The translations under genes were made by a program, and so were the position numbers. The notes beneath the pieces were generated by a model that worked only from the letters and a program-made list of their open reading frames with translations, searched no databases and was not told the DNA's origin. Positions 7,708-18,693 of a stretch of DNA of 64,000 nucleotides are shown here, piece after piece. Origin of the DNA: an uncultured Pirellulales bacterium (GTDB lineage Bacteria > Planctomycetota > Phycisphaerae > Sedimentisphaerales > Anaerohalosphaeraceae); NCBI GenBank assembly GCA_964386005.1, contig CAYLSB010000015.1, positions 2,986 through 66,985 of the forward strand. The letters run 5' to 3'. Positions within the stretch are counted from its first letter, which is position 1; the number at the start of each line of letters is the position of its first letter.

Positions 7708-7746
7708 AACGACCCGGAGGCCATTGGCGTTCGGGTCGTTTATTTT
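7708..7746. terminator. Hairpin terminator between the convergent MFS and deacetylase genes
   Basis: A 9-bp stem AACGACCCG / CGGGTCGTT (7708-7716 / 7732-7740) followed by TATTTT. Confidence 0.55.
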
Positions 7747-8872
7747 ACAGACCGTGCAAAGGGAAAATCATTTTTCGAATCTGATCAATAGTTTGGCCGA
7801 GGATCTCATTGACGGTATCTTTCTGTGTCTGGTCGGGGGCGAGCTGACGATCGCGAAGGCCACCGGACCAGTCGGTTGTTTCCAATAAAACCCCTCCCAT
7901 TCCCGCAAGATCATCCTGTCGGTCCTCGCCGCAAAGGGCTATCCAGACCAACGCCCAGGCCCGGACGGTATTCTCGACGTTATATCCGCCGCCTCCTGTG
8001 GCCAGGATGGGTTTTCCAAAGGCCAGCAAGAGTTCAATCACATCGGCCATGGTATTGTTCGTCAAACTCAGATTGGCCAGAGGATCATTGGCCAGCGTGT
8101 CGGCGCCGGCCTCGAGGACGATCACATCCGGATTGTAGGCATGGAGAAGCGGGAGTACGACCTTGCGGATCGCCGCCAAATAGGCCGTATCGTATATTCC
8201 CATCGGCAGTGGAACATTCACCGCATATCCCCGCCCTTCGCCCTCGCCGAGATCTTCGACAAAACCCGTGCCGGGAAACAAGGTTCGGCCGTCCTGATGC
8301 AAAGAGATGGTCATCACGTCTTTGCGATTATAAAACGCCGCTTGAACCCCATCGCAGTGGTGAACGTCAATGTCAATAAACACTACCCGTTTCCCCGCTT
8401 TGGCCAATGTCATACAGGCCAGCACAATATCGTTCACATAGCAAAAGCCGGCCGCCCGGTCGGCAAAGGCGTGGTGATATCCGCCGGAAGGGTTGAAGGC
8501 CACAGTTGCACGGCCGTCGAGGATCATCTGAGCCGCCGTGACGGAGGCCCCGGCGGCCCACGTAGCGTAAGGGTACATTCCCCCAAAGACCGGGCAATCC
8601 GAAGTACCCAGGCCGTAGCGGAGCATGGCGTAATCGAATTGTCCCGAATCAGCGGCTTCAAGAGCATCCAGATAGGACGGGGTATGATACCATTCGAACT
8701 GTTTTCGACCCAGTGGAATTGGGATGACTTCGGCTTTGTCCGGTCCGGTCAGCAGTCCCATAGAGGCCAGAAGCTGCCGGGTTTTTCCGGCCCGGGACGT
8801 ATTGAAGGGGCAGCTTTCCGGATATGGATACTGTTCCAGTTGGGGACAGTGGACAAATAGTTTTGATCCCAT
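7745..8872 (-). CDS. Zn-dependent histone deacetylase family protein (AcuC / acetoin-utilisation-type lysine deacetylase)
   Basis: Catalytic motifs SGGYHHAFADRAAGFCYVNDIV, IDIDVHHCDGVQ and ATGGGGYN are all present. The start is trimmed to ATG 8872 (MGSKLFVHCPQ...), preceded by GGGGAGAG. Confidence 0.85.
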   Translation of the reverse strand: MGSKLFVHCPQLEQYPYPESCPFNTSRAGKTRQLLASMGLLTGPDKAEVIPIPLGRKQFEWYHTPSYLDALEAADSGQFDYAMLRYGLGTSDCPVFGGMYPYATWAAGASVTAAQMILDGRATVAFNPSGGYHHAFADRAAGFCYVNDIVLACMTLAKAGKRVVFIDIDVHHCDGVQAAFYNRKDVMTISLHQDGRTLFPGTGFVEDLGEGEGRGYAVNVPLPMGIYDTAYLAAIRKVVLPLLHAYNPDVIVLEAGADTLANDPLANLSLTNNTMADVIELLLAFGKPILATGGGGYNVENTVRAWALVWIALCGEDRQDDLAGMGGVLLETTDWSGGLRDRQLAPDQTQKDTVNEILGQTIDQIRKMIFPLHGL

Positions 8873-8886
8873 TGTGCTCTCCCCAA

Positions 8887-10140
8887 TTATCCGGCTGAAC
8901 TGATTTGCCGCTGGGCCGATTCCAGCCATGACTTATTGATTGAAACGCCCCAGCCCGGTCCGTTGGGAATCGCCACTTTGCCATCCTGAACCTTCAGGAC
9001 CGGCTCATACAGGCCGTCCGTCCAGTCGTTGTTCTCGATGGTGTATTCGATGAATGGCGCTGGATTGGGGATTGCTCCCATCAGGTGAAGGGCGAAGACA
9101 GTCACCATCGACAAGTTAGCCGAGTGCGGCACGACGGTGAGACCGGAACGACGGGCCATCTCAACAACGCGCAATGTCCGAGTCAGGCCGCCGATATAAC
9201 AGACGTCCGGCTGGGCGATATCCATCGCCGGGATCGCGATCATCCGTCGCCACTGGGCCAGATCGTTGTCCTGCTCGCCGCCGGCGATGGGAACCTTCAG
9301 AGCTTTGGTCACCTCGGCGGTCCATTCAAATTCCCAATAGGGACAGGGTTCCTCGAAATGCACGACATGATTCTGTTCGAGCATCCGTCCGACTTCAATG
9401 GCTTTGTCGGGCGTGTAGCAACTGTTGGCATCGACCATCAGCGCTGTGTCGGGGCCGATTGCTTTCCGGACGGCCGGTACGATCTGGTCCGTACGACCCG
9501 GCCAGGGATCGCGGTTGTGCCCGGCTTCGGAGCCGATGCGGATTTTAAAGGCGGCGAATCCATGGGAATCCCGCAGGGCGGCCAGCCGTTTGGCTTCCTC
9601 TTCGGCGGTGATCGTCCGACTCATACTCGAACCATAAACGGCCATCACGCGAGGTTTTCCGCCGAGCAGATCGCATACGCTTTTGTTCTCGATCCTGCCG
9701 CGAAGGTCCCACAAGGCCGTATCCACGCCCGCCAGCGCCCGGCAGACAAAGGACCAGGGAAACTTCAGGTTTTTGTCGATACAGATGTCGCAAATATCGG
9801 CGACATCGTATGGGTCTTTTCCCAAAGCATGCGGAGCGATCTTGCGATGGAGGATCGTCGCGGAGATGTCGGCGTCGAATGGGGCGATCTGTCCGTATCC
9901 TTCGGCGCCGCTATCGGTGGTTACACGGACAACACTCAGGGAACCCTTCGTGAAGGTTTCGATGGTCTTGATCTTGGTGCCGCTTTTGCCGGTAACCAGC
10001 GAATCCATCGACCAGCTTTTCATGTCGCTTGTCCGGATCGGGACGGGTTTTCCCAGTCCGAAGGTCCGGTCGGACAAAAACGGTACGACAATCGTTGCCG
10101 CTGCCGCGGCTTTCATAAAATCTCGACGGGATGTGTTCAT
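8887..10140 (-). CDS. Enolase-superfamily enzyme (mandelate racemase / muconate lactonizing family) with a twin-arginine signal
   Basis: Start trimmed to MNTSRRDFMKAAAAATIVVPFLS (Tat-type RRxFxK followed by a hydrophobic stretch). Metal-ligand context: MVDANS, FEEPC, AGGEQD. Confidence 0.8.
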   Translation of the reverse strand: MNTSRRDFMKAAAAATIVVPFLSDRTFGLGKPVPIRTSDMKSWSMDSLVTGKSGTKIKTIETFTKGSLSVVRVTTDSGAEGYGQIAPFDADISATILHRKIAPHALGKDPYDVADICDICIDKNLKFPWSFVCRALAGVDTALWDLRGRIENKSVCDLLGGKPRVMAVYGSSMSRTITAEEEAKRLAALRDSHGFAAFKIRIGSEAGHNRDPWPGRTDQIVPAVRKAIGPDTALMVDANSCYTPDKAIEVGRMLEQNHVVHFEEPCPYWEFEWTAEVTKALKVPIAGGEQDNDLAQWRRMIAIPAMDIAQPDVCYIGGLTRTLRVVEMARRSGLTVVPHSANLSMVTVFALHLMGAIPNPAPFIEYTIENNDWTDGLYEPVLKVQDGKVAIPNGPGWGVSINKSWLESAQRQISSAG

Positions 10141-10168
10141 CGGACACCTGCCTGTTTTGAAGTTCGTT

Positions 10169-11005
10169 TCAGACCTGTGATTGATTCCCACCGATTGGAA
10201 TCGTTACAATACGAATATCCCGGTCACGATCGGCGGCGATGGCCAGCGTATTACCCTTGGCATCCACAGCGATACTCTGGCCGCCATAGACCTGCCCCGT
10301 CCAGGGTCCGTGAGAGATTTGGCCGACCAGATCCGTTCCGACAACCGGAGCACCGATAGACTCGGCTGTTCTTTTCACGACGCGATGAAGTTCCATTCCA
10401 TGCCGCGGCCATTTTTTTTCTTCGGCGGCCCAGCCGTAGGGGACCAGCAGGAGATCGACCCCCAGACGTTTGATCTTCTGCAAAACGGCCTCCTCAAACG
10501 TATCAGCGCAGATCACAAGTCCGATCTTTCCCAGCGGTGTCGATGCCGGGGTAATATCCCTTACGGTCCCGGCCATGTACGGCGGATACATCAGTTCAGG
10601 CAGGGTGTTGACCTTACGATGTTTCAACACAATCCGTCCGTCCGGATCGACAAGGATCGCTGAATCATAGAGGCATTCGTTATCCAGCTCGTCGATCCCG
10701 ATACACAGGTACAATCCGTGATCTTTGGCCAGACGACACAACCGATCGGTGTCTTGCCCGGGTATTGGAGCGGCTCGTTTATGGGCATCCGGATTGACCC
10801 AGCCGAGAATCGCCGATTCAGGAAAACAGGCAATCTGAGCCGAGGCCTGTTTCGCTTCGGTCAGGGCATGTTCGATCCGTGCGAAGTTGCCCTCACGATC
10901 TCCGTCCAGGCAGACAATCTGACACATCGCCACTCGGATGGAACGACGGTATTTTTTTTCTCCATCAGTGAATTTCGATCCGGCCATGTTGTTCTCCGTA
11001 ATCAT
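10169..11005 (-). CDS. Carbon-nitrogen hydrolase (nitrilase superfamily)
   Basis: A Glu-Lys-Cys triad context is present (IACFPESA, LKHRKVN, LVICADTF) in about 275 aa. An alternative start exists at 10987. Confidence 0.8.
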   Translation of the reverse strand: MITENNMAGSKFTDGEKKYRRSIRVAMCQIVCLDGDREGNFARIEHALTEAKQASAQIACFPESAILGWVNPDAHKRAAPIPGQDTDRLCRLAKDHGLYLCIGIDELDNECLYDSAILVDPDGRIVLKHRKVNTLPELMYPPYMAGTVRDITPASTPLGKIGLVICADTFEEAVLQKIKRLGVDLLLVPYGWAAEEKKWPRHGMELHRVVKRTAESIGAPVVGTDLVGQISHGPWTGQVYGGQSIAVDAKGNTLAIAADRDRDIRIVTIPIGGNQSQV

Positions 11006-11035
11006 TAACCGATCGAAAACCGATTCTCCGGCCGT

Positions 11036-12949
11036 TTACGTTCCAGCGGGATTGGACGGGTTCACCGGCCCGGCCGGGCGGCTCTTTCGCTTGCTCAAGT
11101 CATAGGTGATGGAATAGGCCTCGCCGTCGAATTCAGTTTTAATCTCATAGCCGCTATTATAGAAGATCTGCAGCATGGCTTTGTTGATCGGCAACACCGT
11201 CGCATAAAACGATCTGACTCCGCGGCCGCGAGCGATCTTGGTGATGTATTCCAGCAGAAAACTGCCCATTCCCTTGTCCTGCCATTCATCCTGTACGATA
11301 AACGCCACCTCCGCCACGCCCGTTTTGGGATCGAGGAAGTATTGGGCGATCGCGACGATCTCATCGCCCGCGGGGCTGGGAACCACCGCCACAATCGCCA
11401 GGTTCTGCTGGTAATCCACATTGGTGAGTTTCTGTACATCTTTGTGCGGAAATGTCTTGGTATGGGAGAAGTATCTCCGCTTGATCGACTGGCTGCTCAG
11501 GGAATACAGCATGTCGGAAAGCGTCTCTTCGTCGGTGGGCTTGACCGGCCGGAAAAAGATCTCGGTGCCATCCCGGAGCGTTTCGAAATGTTCCAGTTCG
11601 TCGGGATAGCGGACCTTTTCCCATTCCAGCTCGATCTGGTCGGCCTGGACATACTGTTGGGCCTTGGCGGCCTGGATCAGTTCCTTGCGGAATTTCGGAT
11701 GAGCGATGTTGATCAACGACATGGCTCGCTCGCGAATGCTCTTGCCGTGCAGGTATGCAATCCCGAATTCGGTTACCACATAATGCACATCGCCCCGTGT
11801 GGTCACTACACCGGCGCCATCGGCAAGTTTGGGGACGATTCGACTGATGGACTCGTCCCTGGCCGTTGAGGGCATCGCGATAATGGGCTTGCCTTCCCGG
11901 CTGCGGGCGCAACCCCGAATGAAATCGACCTGGCCCCCGATGCCGCTGTAGAATTTGTAACCAAGCGAATCGGCACAAACCTGGCCGGTCAGATCGATCT
12001 CCAGGCCGACGTTGATGCCGACCATCTTGTCATGCTGAGCGATGATGAATGGGTCGTTGACGTATTCGGTCGGGTGAAACTCGAACATCGGGTTGTTGTT
12101 AATGTAATCATAGAGCCGCTGTGAACCCATGCAGAAACTGGCAACGACTTTTCCGTGATTGATGGTCTTCTTCGTACACGTTACAGCTCCACACTCGATC
12201 AATTCAAGAATCCAGTCGCCGAACATCTCGGTATGAATTCCCAGTTCTTTCTTGTCGTGCAGAAATTCCGCCATGGCCTGGGGAATTCGCCCGATGCCGC
12301 ATTCGATGGTGCTGCCATCCCCCACGAGCCGCGCCAGATTCTGCCCGATTCTCCGCAAGACTTCCGTCGGTTCGGCCGATTCAACGGCGACGATCGGTTC
12401 ATCGAACGGGACCATCCAGTCGATCGCATTGATATGGATAAAGCTGTTCCCGAACGTTCGCGGCATGTGCGAATTCACCTGGGCGATCACGAGCTTGGCG
12501 TTGGCCGCGGCCGACTTGACAATATCCACCGATACGCCCAGACTGCACAGCCCGTTGACATCCGGAGGGGTAACGCTGATCAGCGCCACATCCACCGGCA
12601 TCCGTCCGCTGGCAAACAGCCGCGGAATATCCGATAAAAAGATCGGCGTATAATCCCCCACGCCCCGCTCCAGAGCGCCGCGGACGTTGTCGGCGATGAA
12701 GAAACAGTTCATCTTGAATTTGTCCGCCAGCTTTTCGCTGGCGTACGGGGCCGACCCCATGGTCAACAGATGGATGATATGGGCGTCATAGATATGCCCC
12801 GAATGTTCCACCAGGGCATGGACCAGATGCTGCGGCTGGCCGCATCCGGTGCCGATGAAAATATTATCGCCCGATTTGACCTGACGAATCGCTTCCGGAG
12901 CCGTGCAAACCTGCCGGGCATACTTTTGTTTCCAATCGAAGTTTGGCAT
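11036..12949 (-). CDS. Acetyl-CoA hydrolase/transferase domain fused to a C-terminal Pat-type GNAT acetyltransferase domain
   Basis: The N-terminal 440 aa or so resemble 4-hydroxybutyrate/acetyl-CoA CoA-transferases (SGDNIFIGTGCGQPQHLVHAL..., GIGGQVDFIRG). The C-terminal 170 aa or so match the GNAT of protein lysine acetyltransferase Pat (FFRPVKPTDEE...SIKRRYFS...LTNVDYQQNLAIVAV...AEVAFIVQDEWQDKGMGSFLL). Confidence 0.85.
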   Translation of the reverse strand: MPNFDWKQKYARQVCTAPEAIRQVKSGDNIFIGTGCGQPQHLVHALVEHSGHIYDAHIIHLLTMGSAPYASEKLADKFKMNCFFIADNVRGALERGVGDYTPIFLSDIPRLFASGRMPVDVALISVTPPDVNGLCSLGVSVDIVKSAAANAKLVIAQVNSHMPRTFGNSFIHINAIDWMVPFDEPIVAVESAEPTEVLRRIGQNLARLVGDGSTIECGIGRIPQAMAEFLHDKKELGIHTEMFGDWILELIECGAVTCTKKTINHGKVVASFCMGSQRLYDYINNNPMFEFHPTEYVNDPFIIAQHDKMVGINVGLEIDLTGQVCADSLGYKFYSGIGGQVDFIRGCARSREGKPIIAMPSTARDESISRIVPKLADGAGVVTTRGDVHYVVTEFGIAYLHGKSIRERAMSLINIAHPKFRKELIQAAKAQQYVQADQIELEWEKVRYPDELEHFETLRDGTEIFFRPVKPTDEETLSDMLYSLSSQSIKRRYFSHTKTFPHKDVQKLTNVDYQQNLAIVAVVPSPAGDEIVAIAQYFLDPKTGVAEVAFIVQDEWQDKGMGSFLLEYITKIARGRGVRSFYATVLPINKAMLQIFYNSGYEIKTEFDGEAYSITYDLSKRKSRPAGPVNPSNPAGT

Positions 12950-12984
12950 CTTAAACCCTCTCTATGTCAGGGTTTGTTATCATT

Positions 12985-13638
12985 TTAGGTATTATCCTGA
13001 ACCTCTAATACGCTCGGAAGGACCCTTCGGATATCAACTTCAAGTTTCTGAAATGCTCTAAGTTGTCTTAGGGAGCTGAAGTCTTCAATGAAATCCGGAA
13101 TCCGCCGAATGGCCTGTGATGTATTGAATTGCTTTTTTCTTCGTCCATGTAAACCGCTTGCGGTTTTTAATGCCTCGTGCAAAAGACTCTTGGGGTCAGA
13201 AAGTTGTTCTATATCGCTACATCTTGGTAGATTCAAAGAATCATCCCCATTTGGATTTCCCGATGCCTTACGAATCGCAGTCTCGTTAGTTAAGAGCCAT
13301 GCTTCCATCATCCGAACAGGGACAATGCCGACATAACGAGGATAATTCTGGAATTGAATCTGTTGGATTGCTTTCTCGATCTCAAAATATCTCTGTTCTG
13401 CGGCTTGCCCTTCGCTATCTCGATGGACAAACAAAAGATTACACGGATACAACCGAACGGCTTTTTCGATTCGTTCCGGCAACTCCTTCGGCGGTTTTGG
13501 AATTCTTCGAAGGTCGGCACATATAGACTGGATGGGAACCATCGGAGGAAGCTGAAGGCGAAGAATCCATGTCAGAATCGGGATCAACACCTGATCTGAA
13601 GAACCATCGCTTAATAGACTAAATCGAATTTCCATCAT
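12985..13638 (-). CDS. Small Toprim-like / DUF4276-like protein, partner of the upstream ATPase (family assignment tentative)
   Basis: Track ORF trimmed to ATG 13638 or 13635 (MMEIRFSLLSDGSSDQVLIPIL...). It has a hydrophobic strand plus an acidic patch (LLSDGSSD), then LLFVHRDSEG and VPVRMMEAWLL, a pattern reminiscent of Toprim-type nuclease partners. It overlaps the ATPase stop by about 17-20 nt and lies in AT-rich DNA. Confidence 0.5.
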   Translation of the reverse strand: MMEIRFSLLSDGSSDQVLIPILTWILRLQLPPMVPIQSICADLRRIPKPPKELPERIEKAVRLYPCNLLFVHRDSEGQAAEQRYFEIEKAIQQIQFQNYPRYVGIVPVRMMEAWLLTNETAIRKASGNPNGDDSLNLPRCSDIEQLSDPKSLLHEALKTASGLHGRRKKQFNTSQAIRRIPDFIEDFSSLRQLRAFQKLEVDIRRVLPSVLEVQDNT

Positions 13639-15115
13639 TTGCCATAAAAGGTAAATAAGGTTGGATGTCTGTCCGATCAATTACACGGATCCTTCGTGTT
13701 TTCAGCTTATTCTGTTGACTGTCTTTACCGCCATCTTCTTTCATGACCGGGTTTAGATATTCCATCAATTTCCCTATCGGACAAGAAGGAAACTCGTGAC
13801 CCTCGGGCGTTTTCATTTTTGTACGCCATGTATCGGCCAAACAACTCAGGGACATACCGCGAATGATTGATTTCTCATATAGCATTTCGTTCCATTCCGC
13901 TATCAGAAGACAATCCTCGGGTACTTGTTGAACCACGGAAGGGGAATGTGTATTGATAATCACTTGTCTTGAAGGATTATCCGGACCAATTGGGTCATCG
14001 GAATCCGAGGCGATATCCTGCAATAACTGAAGCATTGCTGGAATTCGGCCCGGATGAATCCCGTTTTCCGGCTCTTCCAGACATAGCAATCCGTGAAATT
14101 CCGGATCGTTCACCAGAACGGCTAAAGCCAGAAATCGAAGGGAACCATCCGAGAGTGACCGGGCTGCCAAAGGATTCCCATCGCGACTTCTGACGGTTAA
14201 GGTGAGAAGTTCTCGTTTGTTATCGCGATCTACATCCAATTCATGGACCTCGTCGATCAATTGAGCCAGCCGATTCCCGACTTGGGATAATATCTGACTT
14301 CCGGAGGGAACCGATTTTCCATTCCCCTTGGGATGAGCCAACCGATACAAAGTCGCCGGAAGGTGGGAACCATTCGATCCAAGACGGGAGGACGCCGAAA
14401 ATCCATCCGGGCTTCGTAACGCTGACGGTTCCAGTTGAAACAATTGCCAGGATTGCATTTCCTTCTTCACCAAAGCGGCGGTGGGAGTTTCCGCAGTTGT
14501 TGCTGACAAGACCGTCCGAGGCATATCGGATGCGATTCGGGGGCTCGGTTTGCCAGATCGGCCATCCTGATGCAATTGGATACGGCCGTTGTCAGTGGAA
14601 ATAAATTTTCCACCGGCTCGTTTCCCTTTTACGACGGATTTACGCCATTCATCACTGTGACTGAACAATAAATGTTTTTTAGCGTCGGTTTGGGTAATGT
14701 GAACTAATTCTTCTTTGAGAAGTTCCAGATTTCCTGACGATCGGTTTTCCTCGTCCCGATATCCCAACTCGATGGAATAACGGACAAATGTTGTGGTTGC
14801 TTTTGCTTCTTGCCCCAAATCATCGACTCCATTATAGGGAATAATCATTTCGGCTTCAAAACTCATTTTGGGGGCGATATTGTCTCCGGATTTTGAGAAT
14901 AGACTCTTGATGTCAGTGGTTTTCCCATCCTCATCCCGGACTGAGAGTGCCGCCTCCATTAAGCTGCTGTGAGACAAGGAACTCAAAAAACAGATTGCAT
15001 CGAAAAGATTCGATTTTCCGACACCGTTTGCTCCCGCAATACAGGTAAATGGGCCGAATCGAACATCGACATTCCACAAATTTTTAAATCCGGAAACTTT
15101 GAGTTTTGTTAACAT
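13619..15115 (-). CDS. ABC-type (AAA_15/AAA_21-like, RecF/SMC-head-like) ATPase
   Basis: N-terminal MLTKLKVSGFKNLWNVDVRFGPFTCIAGANGVGKSNLFDAICF (Walker A). It has a long insert, then the signature-like LSDGSLRFLALAVL, Walker B LLCLEEPENGIHP and H-loop IINTHSP. Confidence 0.8.
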   Translation of the reverse strand: MLTKLKVSGFKNLWNVDVRFGPFTCIAGANGVGKSNLFDAICFLSSLSHSSLMEAALSVRDEDGKTTDIKSLFSKSGDNIAPKMSFEAEMIIPYNGVDDLGQEAKATTTFVRYSIELGYRDEENRSSGNLELLKEELVHITQTDAKKHLLFSHSDEWRKSVVKGKRAGGKFISTDNGRIQLHQDGRSGKPSPRIASDMPRTVLSATTAETPTAALVKKEMQSWQLFQLEPSALRSPDGFSASSRLGSNGSHLPATLYRLAHPKGNGKSVPSGSQILSQVGNRLAQLIDEVHELDVDRDNKRELLTLTVRSRDGNPLAARSLSDGSLRFLALAVLVNDPEFHGLLCLEEPENGIHPGRIPAMLQLLQDIASDSDDPIGPDNPSRQVIINTHSPSVVQQVPEDCLLIAEWNEMLYEKSIIRGMSLSCLADTWRTKMKTPEGHEFPSCPIGKLMEYLNPVMKEDGGKDSQQNKLKTRRIRVIDRTDIQPYLPFMANDGNSI

Positions 15116-15233
15116 GTTTCACTCCTATGGTATGAACCACAGGTTGTTGATTCAACCGAATATGATTGACTATATATCGTCAGACATTTCTTTTCTGATG
15201 TTATACCATACCCAATAAAAATCGAACACAAAA

Positions 15234-17351
15234 TCATCCCGTTTTCGTTCCGATCAGGGACATCATGGCATCGACGGCGATGGGGGTCATTCCTTCCCGG
15301 CCGACGATAAACGGATTGATATCCATCTCCTTGATCTGCGGGAATTCCGTCACCAGTTGCGATAGTCTCTGTAATGCCTCTGCAATGGCGTCAATATCCA
15401 CTCCCTCATCGCCGCGAACGCCGCGCAGGATGTCATACGTCCGCGTCCGTACCAGCATTTCCTTGGCCTCCGACGAGGTCAGCGGCGCCGGGTAGAACGC
15501 CACGTCTTCCAGCACTTCGACGAGTTTGCCGCCCATACCGAACATCATCAGCGGACCGAATCGCGGATCCCGCGTCATCCCGAGGATCACCTCGCGGCCG
15601 TGTTGGTACATTTTCTCAACCGTAATACCCAGAATATTCACATTGGCGATTTTCTTGGGTATCCGATACATCATCAGATCGAAGGTATCCATCACCTCCT
15701 GATCATTCTTGACATCCGTCTTGACCCCGCCGACATCGCTTTTGTGCACGATATCCGGCGACCACACCTTGAGTACCACCGGATAGCCGATCTGATTGGC
15801 GATATTGGCCGCCTGTTCCGCCGAATTGGCCAGACCTCCCGGCGGGGTAACAAAGCCATAGGCCTGCAGAATCTCCTTGGTGTCCATCTCTCCGAGTTCA
15901 AGCTGGTGATTGCGAAGGTGCCGTTCGAGAATCCGCTCGACCTTGCGCCGGTTGACGGGAAACAGTTTGACAATCCGCTTGGGTTTCGATCGCCACTTGG
16001 CATACTGAACCATCGTCCGGAGCGCCGCCACAGCGCTTTCGGGAGAATCGTAACTGGGTATCCCGCCATGACGAAGAGCCAGAATCGCTTCGGCGGTACG
16101 GTCGGCTCCGAGGAAGCAGGCCAGGATGGGCTTTTCCTTCCGATCTCCGGCCACGCGGATAACGGCTTCGGCCGTCGCCATGCATTCGGTCATAGCGTGG
16201 GGGCTGAGCAACACCAGCAGCGACTGAACGTTTGGATCATCCAGAACCGCCCTCATCGCATATTCGTATCGATCGGACAAGGCGTCTCCCAGGAGATCCA
16301 GGGGATTACTGATATTGGAAACCGCGGCCGTTTCCATAATCAGCGATATTCGTGCGATGGTTTCCGGCGTGAATTTCGCCAACTCCAGACCTTCTCTCTC
16401 AATGGCGTCGGTCGCCATAATTCCCGCGCCGCCGGCATTGGCGATCACCCCCACGGCCGGACCGGTCGGCAACGGCTGGTTGGCAAATGCACGTGCATAA
16501 TCGAACTGTGCCTTGATGGATTCGCACCGAATTACGCCGGCCCGTTCAAATACGCACTCATACGCATTTTCCGAACCGGCCAGCCGCCCGGTATGCGAAG
16601 TCGCCGCTCGCGCACCGGCCTCCGTTCCCCCGGCTTTCAGCAACAGGATCGGCTTGCGACGGCTGATCCGCTCCGACTGCCGGATGAATTCGTCACCGTC
16701 GGTGATCGTCTCCAGATAACCGGCGATCACATGTGTGTTCGGATCGTCGCCCAGATAGCGAATCAGTTCCATCTCATCAATATCCGCCTTATTTCCGATG
16801 CTGGCCAGCTTACTGAATCCAATGTCCATCGAACGGGACATATCCACCATCGCCGCCAGGATGGATCCCGATTGTGAAAGGTATCCCAGATGCCCCGGCT
16901 TCGGCAGGTCGCCGCCGAAACTCGCATTCAGTTTGGTTTCCGGACACATGACCCCGATGCAATTGGGACCGATCATCCGAATGCCGCCCGTCCGGGCGAT
17001 TTTTACCACCGCTTGTTCCAACTCGGCTCCCTCAGGTCCCGATTCCTTGAATCCGGAAGAAATGACAATGACCGCCTTAACCCCCAGATCGACACACGAT
17101 TGCATGGCCGCGGGGACTTGTTTGGCCGCTACAACGATGACCACCAGATCCAGAGGTTTTTGAATAGACTTGAGATCCGGATACGATTGGAGACCCTGGA
17201 CCTCGTCACAGGTGGGATTGACCGGGAAAATATCCCCGGAAAATCCTCCCCGCTTCATCGCGGCAAGGATCTCATAGCCGACTTTCCCCGGCTTGCGGGA
17301 TGCGCCCATGATGGCTACGCTTTGTGGGGCGAAAAACAGGTCCAGACTCAT
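15234..17351 (-). CDS. Acetate--CoA ligase (ADP-forming), fused alpha/beta type (Acd)
   Basis: CoA-binding N-terminus (FFAPQSVAIMGASRKPGKVGYEI), a succinyl-CoA-synthetase-like flavodoxin domain with ATSHTGRLAGS (phosphohistidine loop), and a C-terminal ATP-grasp (GYPVVLKVWSPDIVHKSDVGGV). At 705 aa it carries no GNAT domain. Confidence 0.85.
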   Translation of the reverse strand: MSLDLFFAPQSVAIMGASRKPGKVGYEILAAMKRGGFSGDIFPVNPTCDEVQGLQSYPDLKSIQKPLDLVVIVVAAKQVPAAMQSCVDLGVKAVIVISSGFKESGPEGAELEQAVVKIARTGGIRMIGPNCIGVMCPETKLNASFGGDLPKPGHLGYLSQSGSILAAMVDMSRSMDIGFSKLASIGNKADIDEMELIRYLGDDPNTHVIAGYLETITDGDEFIRQSERISRRKPILLLKAGGTEAGARAATSHTGRLAGSENAYECVFERAGVIRCESIKAQFDYARAFANQPLPTGPAVGVIANAGGAGIMATDAIEREGLELAKFTPETIARISLIMETAAVSNISNPLDLLGDALSDRYEYAMRAVLDDPNVQSLLVLLSPHAMTECMATAEAVIRVAGDRKEKPILACFLGADRTAEAILALRHGGIPSYDSPESAVAALRTMVQYAKWRSKPKRIVKLFPVNRRKVERILERHLRNHQLELGEMDTKEILQAYGFVTPPGGLANSAEQAANIANQIGYPVVLKVWSPDIVHKSDVGGVKTDVKNDQEVMDTFDLMMYRIPKKIANVNILGITVEKMYQHGREVILGMTRDPRFGPLMMFGMGGKLVEVLEDVAFYPAPLTSSEAKEMLVRTRTYDILRGVRGDEGVDIDAIAEALQRLSQLVTEFPQIKEMDINPFIVGREGMTPIAVDAMMSLIGTKTG

Positions 17352-17865: not shown

Positions 17866-18693
17866 TCAGATGCCGGAGACATTGTCGCGTCGGAGGGTGA
17901 TCCCGGTGTATCTCCATTGTTCGCAGAACTGCTCGATCGGAATGTTGAGTTTGCCCAGAGATGGATCGGCGACGACGACCTGTCGATCATTCATTGCCAG
18001 AACGACAACACAATGATTGGTTAACGGACCCCCTCGAACCATTACCAGAGTGAGCCCGGCCGATTTGAGTTCATGGAGAGTATTGAATCGGCGGAATTCA
18101 CAACGGAGCCCCTGATCGGCGTATTGTTGATCGAGCGCGGAACATAAATCCCATGGCAGAGTCCCGATAATCGGACCCGTGGAGGCGGAGACGGCGATTT
18201 GTCCCTCATGGGCCGGAAGGCGAAGCTGATGCAACGCAGTGACGGCGGCGGCTGGGCCGCATGTGTACGGCCGTGTTTGCAGACAGATACCCTGCTGATC
18301 CGTGAGGTTGGGTGTATTCAGTAACTCATTGCGGACCAGGACGGGCGCTGCAAATGGAAATATCGAAAACGACAGGATAAAGATCAGAAGAAGGATTCGA
18401 ACAACAATTCGTTCCCATCGCTTCGGTAAGAAGGGTTCCAAAGTCAGAATCCCAACGGGGATAGCAAATGAAAGAACGACAAATCGCAAGCGCCCGTGGA
18501 AAATCCCGCCGAGCCATCCTTCGGGGGAGCCAAAGAATCCGGATCGGCCCAAGGAAAGGGCAACAAGGATCATCAGAGGGATTGCGTAGCCCATGGTTTG
18601 TCGAATACGATTCCCGGCCGCACAGAAACGTCCCAGCCGGACGGCTGAAAGTGCTATTGTGACCACGAAAATGATTTCCCGCCACGGATTCAT
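17866..18693 (-). CDS. Membrane-anchored peptidase C39-like (papain-fold cysteine peptidase) protein
   Basis: About 4 N-terminal TM helices followed by a C39-like domain with Cys (QTRPYTCGPAAAVTAL), His (LTNHCVVVLA) and Asp (VVVADP). Confidence 0.65.
   Translation of the reverse strand: MNPWREIIFVVTIALSAVRLGRFCAAGNRIRQTMGYAIPLMILVALSLGRSGFFGSPEGWLGGIFHGRLRFVVLSFAIPVGILTLEPFLPKRWERIVVRILLLIFILSFSIFPFAAPVLVRNELLNTPNLTDQQGICLQTRPYTCGPAAAVTALHQLRLPAHEGQIAVSASTGPIIGTLPWDLCSALDQQYADQGLRCEFRRFNTLHELKSAGLTLVMVRGGPLTNHCVVVLAMNDRQVVVADPSLGKLNIPIEQFCEQWRYTGITLRRDNVSGI

Follow-up and report, generated by a model that had tools for sequence, protein, structure and literature searches.

PARIS is composed of AriA, an ATP-binding cassette (ABC) ATPase, and of AriB, a DUF4435 Toprim nuclease; ATPases partnered with DUF4276 proteins have been placed in the same AAA15/21 tree (PMC11464382). 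DUF4276 has been assigned to the Toprim superfamily and is among the variable effector domains carried by the NsnC component of Menshen (PMC12065111). Closest to the locus considered here is HEC-01 (Hma-embedded candidate 01; PADLOC-DB v2), an ABC ATPase paired with a Toprim protein, found inside Hma (helicase-methylase-ATPase) systems (bioRxiv 10.1101/2024.01.29.577857). Embedding in Hma is how HEC-01 was discovered and is not a rule applied by PADLOC, and other authors still treat HEC-01 as a candidate. We describe here a two-gene cassette, genes A and B, present in a 64,000-nucleotide stretch of contig CAYLSB010000015.1 from an uncultured Pirellulales bacterium; this whole stretch is called the window. 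The A-B pair is, with very little doubt, a member of HEC-01, an already catalogued candidate anti-phage system. The feature is real and its kind had been correctly recognised in an earlier reading of the letters alone (the original prediction); it adds one more member to a candidate system that had been catalogued before, and is no new kind.

The cassette spans positions 12985-15115 and consists of two intact, overlapping genes on the minus strand. The family assignment comes from the PADLOC-DB models. Protein A matched HEC-01A (PDLC04184) at 1.2e-95 (319 bits, residues 1-399), and the next different families, PDC-M07A, AriA and mad3, came in at about 1e-25 to 1e-26. Protein B matched HEC-01B (PDLC04210) over nearly its full length at 1.3e-27, and all six of its PADLOC matches were to HEC-01B models. 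The defence label given by the original prediction thus finds a counterpart in models matched by both proteins, and the question it had left open, whether the pair is already catalogued, is answered by PADLOC HEC-01. Both open reading frames (ORFs), of 498 and 217 aa, were present as it had described them, with all the motifs it had quoted in the stated order.

Gene A (13619-15115, minus strand, ATG start) encodes a 498-aa ABC-type (SMC/Rad50/PtuA-like) ATPase of the HEC-01A family. It matched Pfam AAA_21 at 1.1e-26 and AAA_15 at 6.4e-17, the two families that had been expected, as well as the N-terminus of SMC_N. Its motifs follow one another in the order typical of ABC proteins: Walker A (GANGVGKSN, 28-36), the Q-loop region (225-234), a signature-like LSDGSLRFLAL (321-331), Walker B (LLCLEEPENGIHP, 343-355) and the H-loop (NTHSP, 388-392). 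All are invariant in 54 homologues, the alignment of which contains about 120 invariant columns including K34 of Walker A, E347 and E348 of Walker B and H390 of the H-loop. The AlphaFold2 (AF2) model of A has a mean predicted local distance difference test score (pLDDT) of 81.8, and its best Foldseek neighbours in the PDB are PtuA (from Septu and retron systems), an SMC head and Rad50, with E-values of about 1e-12 to 1e-10. Given the Pfam matches, the invariant motifs and these structural neighbours, A is an ABC-type ATPase of the SMC/Rad50-like sort. Its C-terminal tail (residues about 455-498; window 13619-13750) contains four conserved residues, R477, V478, D480 and R481, yet is modelled as disordered (pLDDT <50); the DNA that encodes it overlaps the start of B. 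From the model, this tail is a candidate docking peptide for B.

Gene B (12985-13638, minus strand) encodes, from its ATG, an HEC-01B protein of 217 aa, which is divergent, DUF4276-like and putatively a metal-dependent nuclease. Upstream of this ATG the frame stays open as far as a TTG at 13680 (231 aa). The ATG is where the alignment of the family begins, and likewise the PADLOC profile. The start of B overlaps the end of A by 20 nt, for which about 17-20 nt had been estimated. Three motifs stand out, LLSDGSSD (8-15), LLFVHRDSEG (68-77) and VPVRMMEAWLL (106-116), and they hold the residues that are invariant in the family alignment: D11-G12, H72-R73-D74-x-E76 and E112. The AF2 model (pLDDT 92.4) shows a beta-alpha-beta-alpha-beta-alpha-beta core followed by a helical C-terminal half, with strands at 4-9, 36-40, 68-72 and 101-105 and helices at 15-29, 53-63 and 80-93. 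D11 lies after the first strand, D74-x-E76 after the third and E112 after the fourth. As a criterion for Toprim we used a parallel sheet of four strands within a three-layer alpha/beta sandwich, where beta1 is followed by a conserved acidic residue and beta3 by a DxD; the order of secondary structures along the chain of B fits this layout. In the B family (66 relatives), DUF4276 was matched by 54 members at E<=0.01 (best 1.4e-8) and by 64 at E<=10; no other Pfam family was matched at E<=0.01, and the remaining ones were matched by at most four members at E<=10. B is, as judged from these profile comparisons, a divergent relative of DUF4276 and not a formal member. Payne et al. reported that HEC-01B shares the metal site of the Burkholderia pseudomallei OLD protein (bioRxiv 10.1101/2024.01.29.577857). 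It is on this weak family-wide link to DUF4276, on the topology and on two papers (the latter and PMC12065111) that the assignment of B to Toprim is founded.

The two genes go together well beyond the window. Clustered at 90% identity, homologues of A form more than 7,400 clusters and those of B about 1,280, in several phyla, with typical identities of 50-60% in Planctomycetota, Nostoc and other Cyanobacteria, Gemmatimonadota and Armatimonadota. Among 80 metagenome loci that encode a relative of B, 74 had usable upstream sequence and 73 of these carried A immediately upstream of B, so that the co-occurrence which the original prediction had proposed to test is borne out. In several other loci the two genes also overlap or abut. 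A and B are an obligate, translationally coupled pair. No B relative was found in IMG/VR viral contigs, the 50,697 INPHARED phage genomes gave no match to B and only distant ones to A, and the plasmid search returned two matching records, both of megaplasmid size. The G+C content of the pair follows that of its host (r = 0.79) and is below that of the flanks in 22 of 28 loci, with a mean difference of 0.039.

A few particular arrangements were seen among these relatives. At L167:10001-11812, a 603-aa homologue of A (P0155, 59% identical) ends in an NTP_transf_2 domain (541-595, 6e-7); no B gene follows it and the next gene is on the opposite strand. The nucleotidyltransferase domain of P0155 may be an alternative effector, fused to the ATPase. 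In a different Phycisphaerae MAG (metagenome-assembled genome; L163:10001-18261), A-B lies within a few kb of genes with Hist_deacetyl and CN_hydrolase domains, as it does in the window, and is followed by ORFs of 129 and 722 aa without a Pfam match; this may be a coincidence or a rearranged version of the window region. At L174:3170-5374, on a metagenome contig, A-B stands about 2.5 kb from two genes of the 23S_rRNA_IVP/bAvd type, interleaved with fatty-acid synthesis genes.

In the window, the cassette lies between two acetyl-coenzyme A (acetyl-CoA) genes that are on the same strand as A and B. Upstream is a gene for a 705-aa ADP-forming acyl-CoA synthetase-like protein (15234-17351, minus strand; Pfam CoA_binding_2, Succ_CoA_lig, Ligase_CoA_2 and ATP-grasp_5), hereafter the CoA ligase. 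Downstream is a gene for a fusion protein of 637 aa, in which an acetyl-CoA hydrolase/transferase is joined to a GNAT acetyltransferase domain (11036-12949, minus strand; Pfam AcetylCoA_hydro, AcetylCoA_hyd_C and Acetyltransf_1). With this downstream flank as query, and one genome per species, a scan of the site returned 80 loci, mostly from MAGs of Phycisphaerae, Sedimentisphaerales and Anaerohalosphaeraceae. The CoA ligase gene was directly upstream of the hydrolase/GNAT gene in most of these 80 related species, and A and B were absent from all 80 loci. The cassette does therefore interrupt a single gene array, as had been proposed: the pair is an accessory module, foreign to the acetyl-CoA operon.

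The same cassette occupies the same site, with a shared 3' junction sequence, in two more lineages, L001 (L001:5582-7716) and L170-L173 (L170:1160-3290). In each comparison, gene A has diverged as much as the flanks: 94.9% identity for A against 95.2-95.5% for the flanks between L001 and L170, 86.8% against 86.5-87.4% between the window and L001, and 86.6% against 87.1-87.6% between the window and L170. The synonymous divergence (dS) between L001 and L170 tells the same: it amounts to 0.54 in A and 0.42 in B, and to 0.52 and 0.36 in the flanks. Since the divergence of the cassette equals that of its flanks in every pair, the cassette has co-diverged with the genome since before the three lineages split. 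The flanks of L003 are 97.9-98.4% identical to those of L170, yet L003 is without the cassette, as are L004 and L005; its absence there is thus attributed to later losses. No recombination tract pointing to a recent import from a window-like lineage was found in the flanks of L001, which are L003-like up to the junction. The ratio of non-synonymous to synonymous divergence (dN/dS) is low, 0.05-0.08 for A and 0.13-0.26 for B, which indicates that both genes have been maintained under purifying selection. To conclude on this point, the insertion is ancient and not recent, and was followed by vertical inheritance, with losses in close relatives. The horizontal acquisition put forward by the original prediction holds as to the foreign character of the cassette; its acquisition is nevertheless old, as the co-divergence with the flanks in three lineages attests.

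The composition of the cassette bears the mark of this foreign character. Its G+C content is 0.460, against 0.561 and 0.570 in the flanks, and the hand counts of the original prediction (25/60 and 26/60 inside, 33/60 and 37/60 outside) were reproduced exactly. The cassette is the most AT-rich 2.1 kb of the 64-kb window: only 0.3% of all 2131-nt segments are equally low and every one of them overlaps it. The middle of A (about 14000-14600) is less extreme, with values of 0.50-0.55. The G+C content at third codon positions (GC3) is 0.40-0.51 in the cassette versus 0.58-0.83 in the flanks, in three lineages diverged by a dS of at least 1. In all three, the cassette is accessory and AT-rich rather than a pair of core genes of normal G+C content. 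Either its amelioration has been much slower than expected or its AT-richness is maintained.

The insertion point is known to the nucleotide. On the 5' side, a 118-nt AT-rich spacer (15116-15233, minus strand, G+C 0.34) separates the stop of the CoA ligase gene from the start of A; it is only 14 nt long in the cassette-bearing L001 and L170. On the 3' side, the 35 nt between the stop of B and the start of the hydrolase/GNAT gene (12950-12984, minus strand) contain an inverted repeat, AAACCCT-N9-AGGGTTT (12953-12975), and a purine-rich GAGAGGG immediately 5' of the ATG. This 3' spacer is kept in both other cassette-bearing lineages and differs from the G+C-rich spacer of the empty sites. Covariation gave no support to a hairpin role for the inverted repeat, one arm position of which is mismatched in L170. 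The number of sites returned by the scan for promoters and terminators did not exceed that of shuffled sequence, and the junction spacers had none; Rfam gave only sub-threshold chance matches on 12500-15600. In agreement with the original prediction, there is no integrase near the cassette, and the direct or inverted repeats that flank it are short matches at chance level.

The spacer between the CoA ligase and hydrolase/GNAT genes accepts other cargo too. In another species (L034:4032-6128) the same spacer holds a different insert of about 2.1 kb, which encodes a protein of roughly 650 aa with a signal-peptide-like start (MVKFQSAIMAAAPVLL...). The ligase and hydrolase/GNAT pair itself, often beside a deacetylase-type gene, is conserved across about 80 Planctomycetota-related species (window 7745-17351; loci L003-L082) and looks like an acetate and protein-acetylation module. 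Other genes near the cassette code for a CN_hydrolase (nitrilase-type) protein, an MR_MLE enolase-type protein, a histone-deacetylase-type protein, an AMP-forming acetyl-CoA synthetase, a tRNA synthetase and ScpA. Just past the operon, at 17866-18693 on the minus strand, is a gene for a membrane protein of 275 aa that contains a Peptidase_C39 domain (9.7e-7); beyond it, a hybrid histidine kinase and then a type II/IV secretion ATPase are encoded. Antisense ORFs of more than 420 aa are present in the G+C-rich CoA ligase gene (15600-16877, plus strand) and in the MR_MLE gene (9085-10359, plus strand); they are almost certainly spurious and driven by composition.

The explanation that we favour, and regard as reasonably likely, is that of a chromosomal HEC-01-class pair, made of an ABC ATPase and a DUF4276-related, Toprim-like putative nuclease, with the insertion history given above and the mechanism that follows. 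In an ancestor of a Phycisphaerae lineage, the pair was inserted into the spacer that separates two co-oriented acetyl-CoA genes. If PARIS, OLD, Menshen and MADS are taken as analogues, A would oligomerise through its ATP-engaged heads and keep B inactive; a phage-derived cue would alter the state of A; the acidic site of B (D11, D74, E76 and E112) might then cut nucleic acid, be it host DNA, phage DNA or tRNA; and infection would stop, probably at a cost to the cell. This scheme starts from what can be read directly: how the genes are built, to which family they belong, that their catalytic motifs are conserved, that they are obligately paired, and that their insertion is an old one; complex formation, trigger, substrate and defence phenotype would follow the example of the systems just named. 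That A-B functions in defence at all is probable to a modest degree, and the scaffold-release details are put forward tentatively.

A number of observations weigh against this reading. They concern the phenotype, the surroundings and the fold of B. Payne et al. challenged their HEC-01 homologue with classic coliphages and part of the BASEL collection and saw no defence (bioRxiv 10.1101/2024.01.29.577857); in favour of the reading, a 2026 study reports one HEC-01 representative by which Escherichia coli B was protected from T4, T5 or T7, at least one of the three (PMC12881386). The two published phenotype tests disagree, and the homologue used in each differs from the window pair. There is no Hma or other defence locus around the cassette, the neighbours being the acetyl-CoA, deacetylase, nitrilase-type, tRNA synthetase and ScpA genes mentioned above. 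Elsewhere, neighbourhoods are mostly housekeeping in character (IlvD, EF-P, Mur ligases, tRNA synthetases). No defence-island signal was seen among 112 neighbour ORFs from 25 loci, taken without a background set. Few of these ORFs matched defence models, as single proteins: pAgo, a SNF2/ZorD/DpdE-like helicase and SoFic, to which can be added mad3-like ATPases in three cases and mad8 in two. A defence-island context, one of the expectations raised for this pair, was thus encountered neither here nor in most related loci. The cassette has moreover been a stable resident for a dS of at least 1, which is unusual for defence genes.

As to B, its own match to Pfam DUF4276 (PF14103) reaches 19.3 bits (E 0.0015, residues 72-180), below the gathering score of 30.2, and D-G and D-x-E stand where Toprim has Glu and DxD. 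In spite of the high confidence of the model, Foldseek found neither a significant neighbour nor a structure of the Toprim kind (best E-values 0.048 for the PDB and 0.042 for BFVD), the sub-significant matches being to generic flavodoxin-like or Rossmann-like folds only. The B family profile retrieved nothing from PDB sequences at E<=10, and its hhalign comparison with P2 Old, a weak test with a single-sequence template, gave a probability of 0.3%. The DUF4276-like label given to the partner by the original prediction therefore stands at the level of the family, through its weak link to DUF4276, and falls short of the Pfam threshold for the window protein. The Toprim label depends on topology, literature and the weak DUF4276 matches, and is without a significant match in Foldseek or hhalign.

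From the confident model of B, the absence of a significant solved or viral structural neighbour, and the D-G, H-R-D-x-E and E that replace the Glu and DxD of Toprim, another reading can be drawn, to which we give little credence. B may lie outside the conventional Toprim nucleases and could found a structurally distinct effector family. The subfamily to which the pair belongs would in that case have stayed in the chromosome over the long term by vertical inheritance, transcribed with the acetyl-CoA/protein-acetylation operon and AT-rich despite a dS of at least 1, the role or regulation of which would have moved away from classical mobile phage defence. The long residence of the pair at one site could also be that of a selfish addiction module of the toxin-antitoxin type, which would persist because its loss is costly and would bring no net anti-phage benefit, B being a toxic nuclease and A its ATP-dependent restraint. 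The tight coupling of A and B fits such a module, as do the solo occurrence of this two-gene unit in intergenic spacers among housekeeping genes in several phyla and the lack of defence by one of the HEC-01 pairs tested. The clean loss in close relatives L003, L004 and L005 argues against strong addiction, however; the strong purifying selection on A and B fits a benefit to the host, and another HEC-01 representative did protect against phage. We consider an addiction module unlikely, though deserving of some attention; it is in any case compatible with defence, abortive-infection systems being often toxin-antitoxin-like.

Two further explanations would give the pair a role in the life of its host. 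The SMC head and Rad50 are among the closest folds of A, the neighbourhood is a housekeeping one and the cassette has co-diverged with the host at low dN/dS, all of which could be expected from a domesticated function in DNA maintenance or repair, where an SMC/RecF/Rad50-like ATPase and a nuclease would act on host DNA and not on invaders. We hold this to be very unlikely: the distribution is patchy, with absence from 80 related species including near-identical relatives, the pair is persistently AT-rich, identity across phyla points to horizontal spread, and the best family matches are all to models of defence systems. It is scarcely believable, finally, that the pair was recruited into the acetyl-CoA/protein-acetylation operon, with which it is probably co-transcribed. 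The common strand, the shortness of the spacers (in L001 and L170, A starts just 14 nt from the upstream gene), the lack of promoter or terminator signals above chance and the renewed proximity of the pair to deacetylase and CN_hydrolase genes in another Phycisphaerae MAG are compatible with such a recruitment, whereas the composition of the pair is foreign to the operon. What makes it unlikely is that the operon is uninterrupted in most of the 80 species, which lack the pair, and that the contexts in Nostoc and in many metagenome loci are unrelated. We therefore retain the HEC-01-class pair, with its ancient insertion, as the best explanation of the locus.

What is new here is the exact insertion site, the finding of this site both occupied and empty among near-identical relatives, the evidence for a long vertical retention, and a B protein to which no solved structure is a neighbour. 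Pairs of the HEC-01 type are very common, and the published phenotype tests conflict. The locus constitutes a clean natural experiment, with an insertion point known to the nucleotide and occupied and empty alleles in relatives that are about 98% identical. Its long vertical retention, together with purifying selection and incomplete amelioration, makes it a reasonable entry point into why some defence-type modules become stable residents. The set of homologous sequences should also be useful for structural and biochemical work on the DUF4276-like effector.

When the pair is set beside the known ATPase-nuclease systems, each shares something with it. MADS (methylation-associated defence system) includes an ATPase of the AAA family, Mad3, and a DUF4276 protein, Mad4, and A matched the NCBIfam MAD3 model over its full length at 1.6e-39 and the PADLOC mad3 model at 1.4e-25. 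MADS was rejected, the MAD3 score being 136 bits for an equivalog cut-off of 420, with no mad4 match for B and no methyltransferase or other mad genes nearby. Menshen likewise joins an ABC ATPase, NsnB, which A matched at 5e-17, to a DUF4276/Toprim effector (PMC12065111). Unlike Menshen, the cassette has neither an NsnA or ParB-like component nor the N-terminal module of NsnC, and B is a stand-alone protein of 217 aa. With class 1 OLD and Gabija GajA the likeness lies in an ABC ATPase head combined with a nuclease chemistry of the Toprim type, putative in the case of B; hhalign aligned A with P2 Old over the N-terminal Walker A region at a probability of 89%, whereas between B and the Toprim region of P2 Old no similarity was detected. 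These systems were set aside: there, ATPase and Toprim are fused, while here they are encoded by two genes, and no GajB UvrD-like helicase adjoins. Of the PDB structures, the one that A matches best is PtuA, of Septu and of the retron-associated PtuA-PtuB (E 7e-13, template modelling score about 0.4-0.5); at the level of its sequence model the match to PtuA is weak (1.7e-13, PADLOC). Septu was dismissed because PtuB is an HNH nuclease and B a DUF4276-like protein without HNH; as for retrons, there is no reverse transcriptase or non-coding RNA at the cassette. AbiL was rejected as well: A matched AbiLi at only 1e-15, far below HEC-01A, and B gave no AbiLii or RloB match.

PARIS is similar to the cassette in having an ABC ATPase of the AAA_15/21 type and a separate small partner of the Toprim superfamily, putatively so in the case of B, and A matched AriA models at 5e-26. 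PARIS is often borne by phages or satellites, unlike the pair, no relative of B having been found in IMG/VR or in the 50,697 phage records. It was rejected as an assignment, B having no AriB match (PADLOC, E<=0.1) and DUF4435 being matched by none of the 66 B relatives (Pfam, E<=10). Membership of the OLD, PARIS or AbiL type (or of Gabija or Septu), as first proposed, is therefore abandoned: B matches none of the partner models, the two genes are separate, and neither a helicase nor an HNH gene is present. Even so, the PARIS logic of a sensor and scaffold that releases a nuclease would, by analogy, provide the best mechanistic model for A-B. With respect to the HEC-01 reference, the window pair stands alone in a metabolic operon, outside Hma or any other defence system, and the C-terminal 100 residues of A, which lie outside the HEC-01A profile (1-399), differ. 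The arrangement it shares with HEC-01 is the adjacency, on one strand, of a gene for an ABC ATPase and a gene for a small Toprim-like protein.

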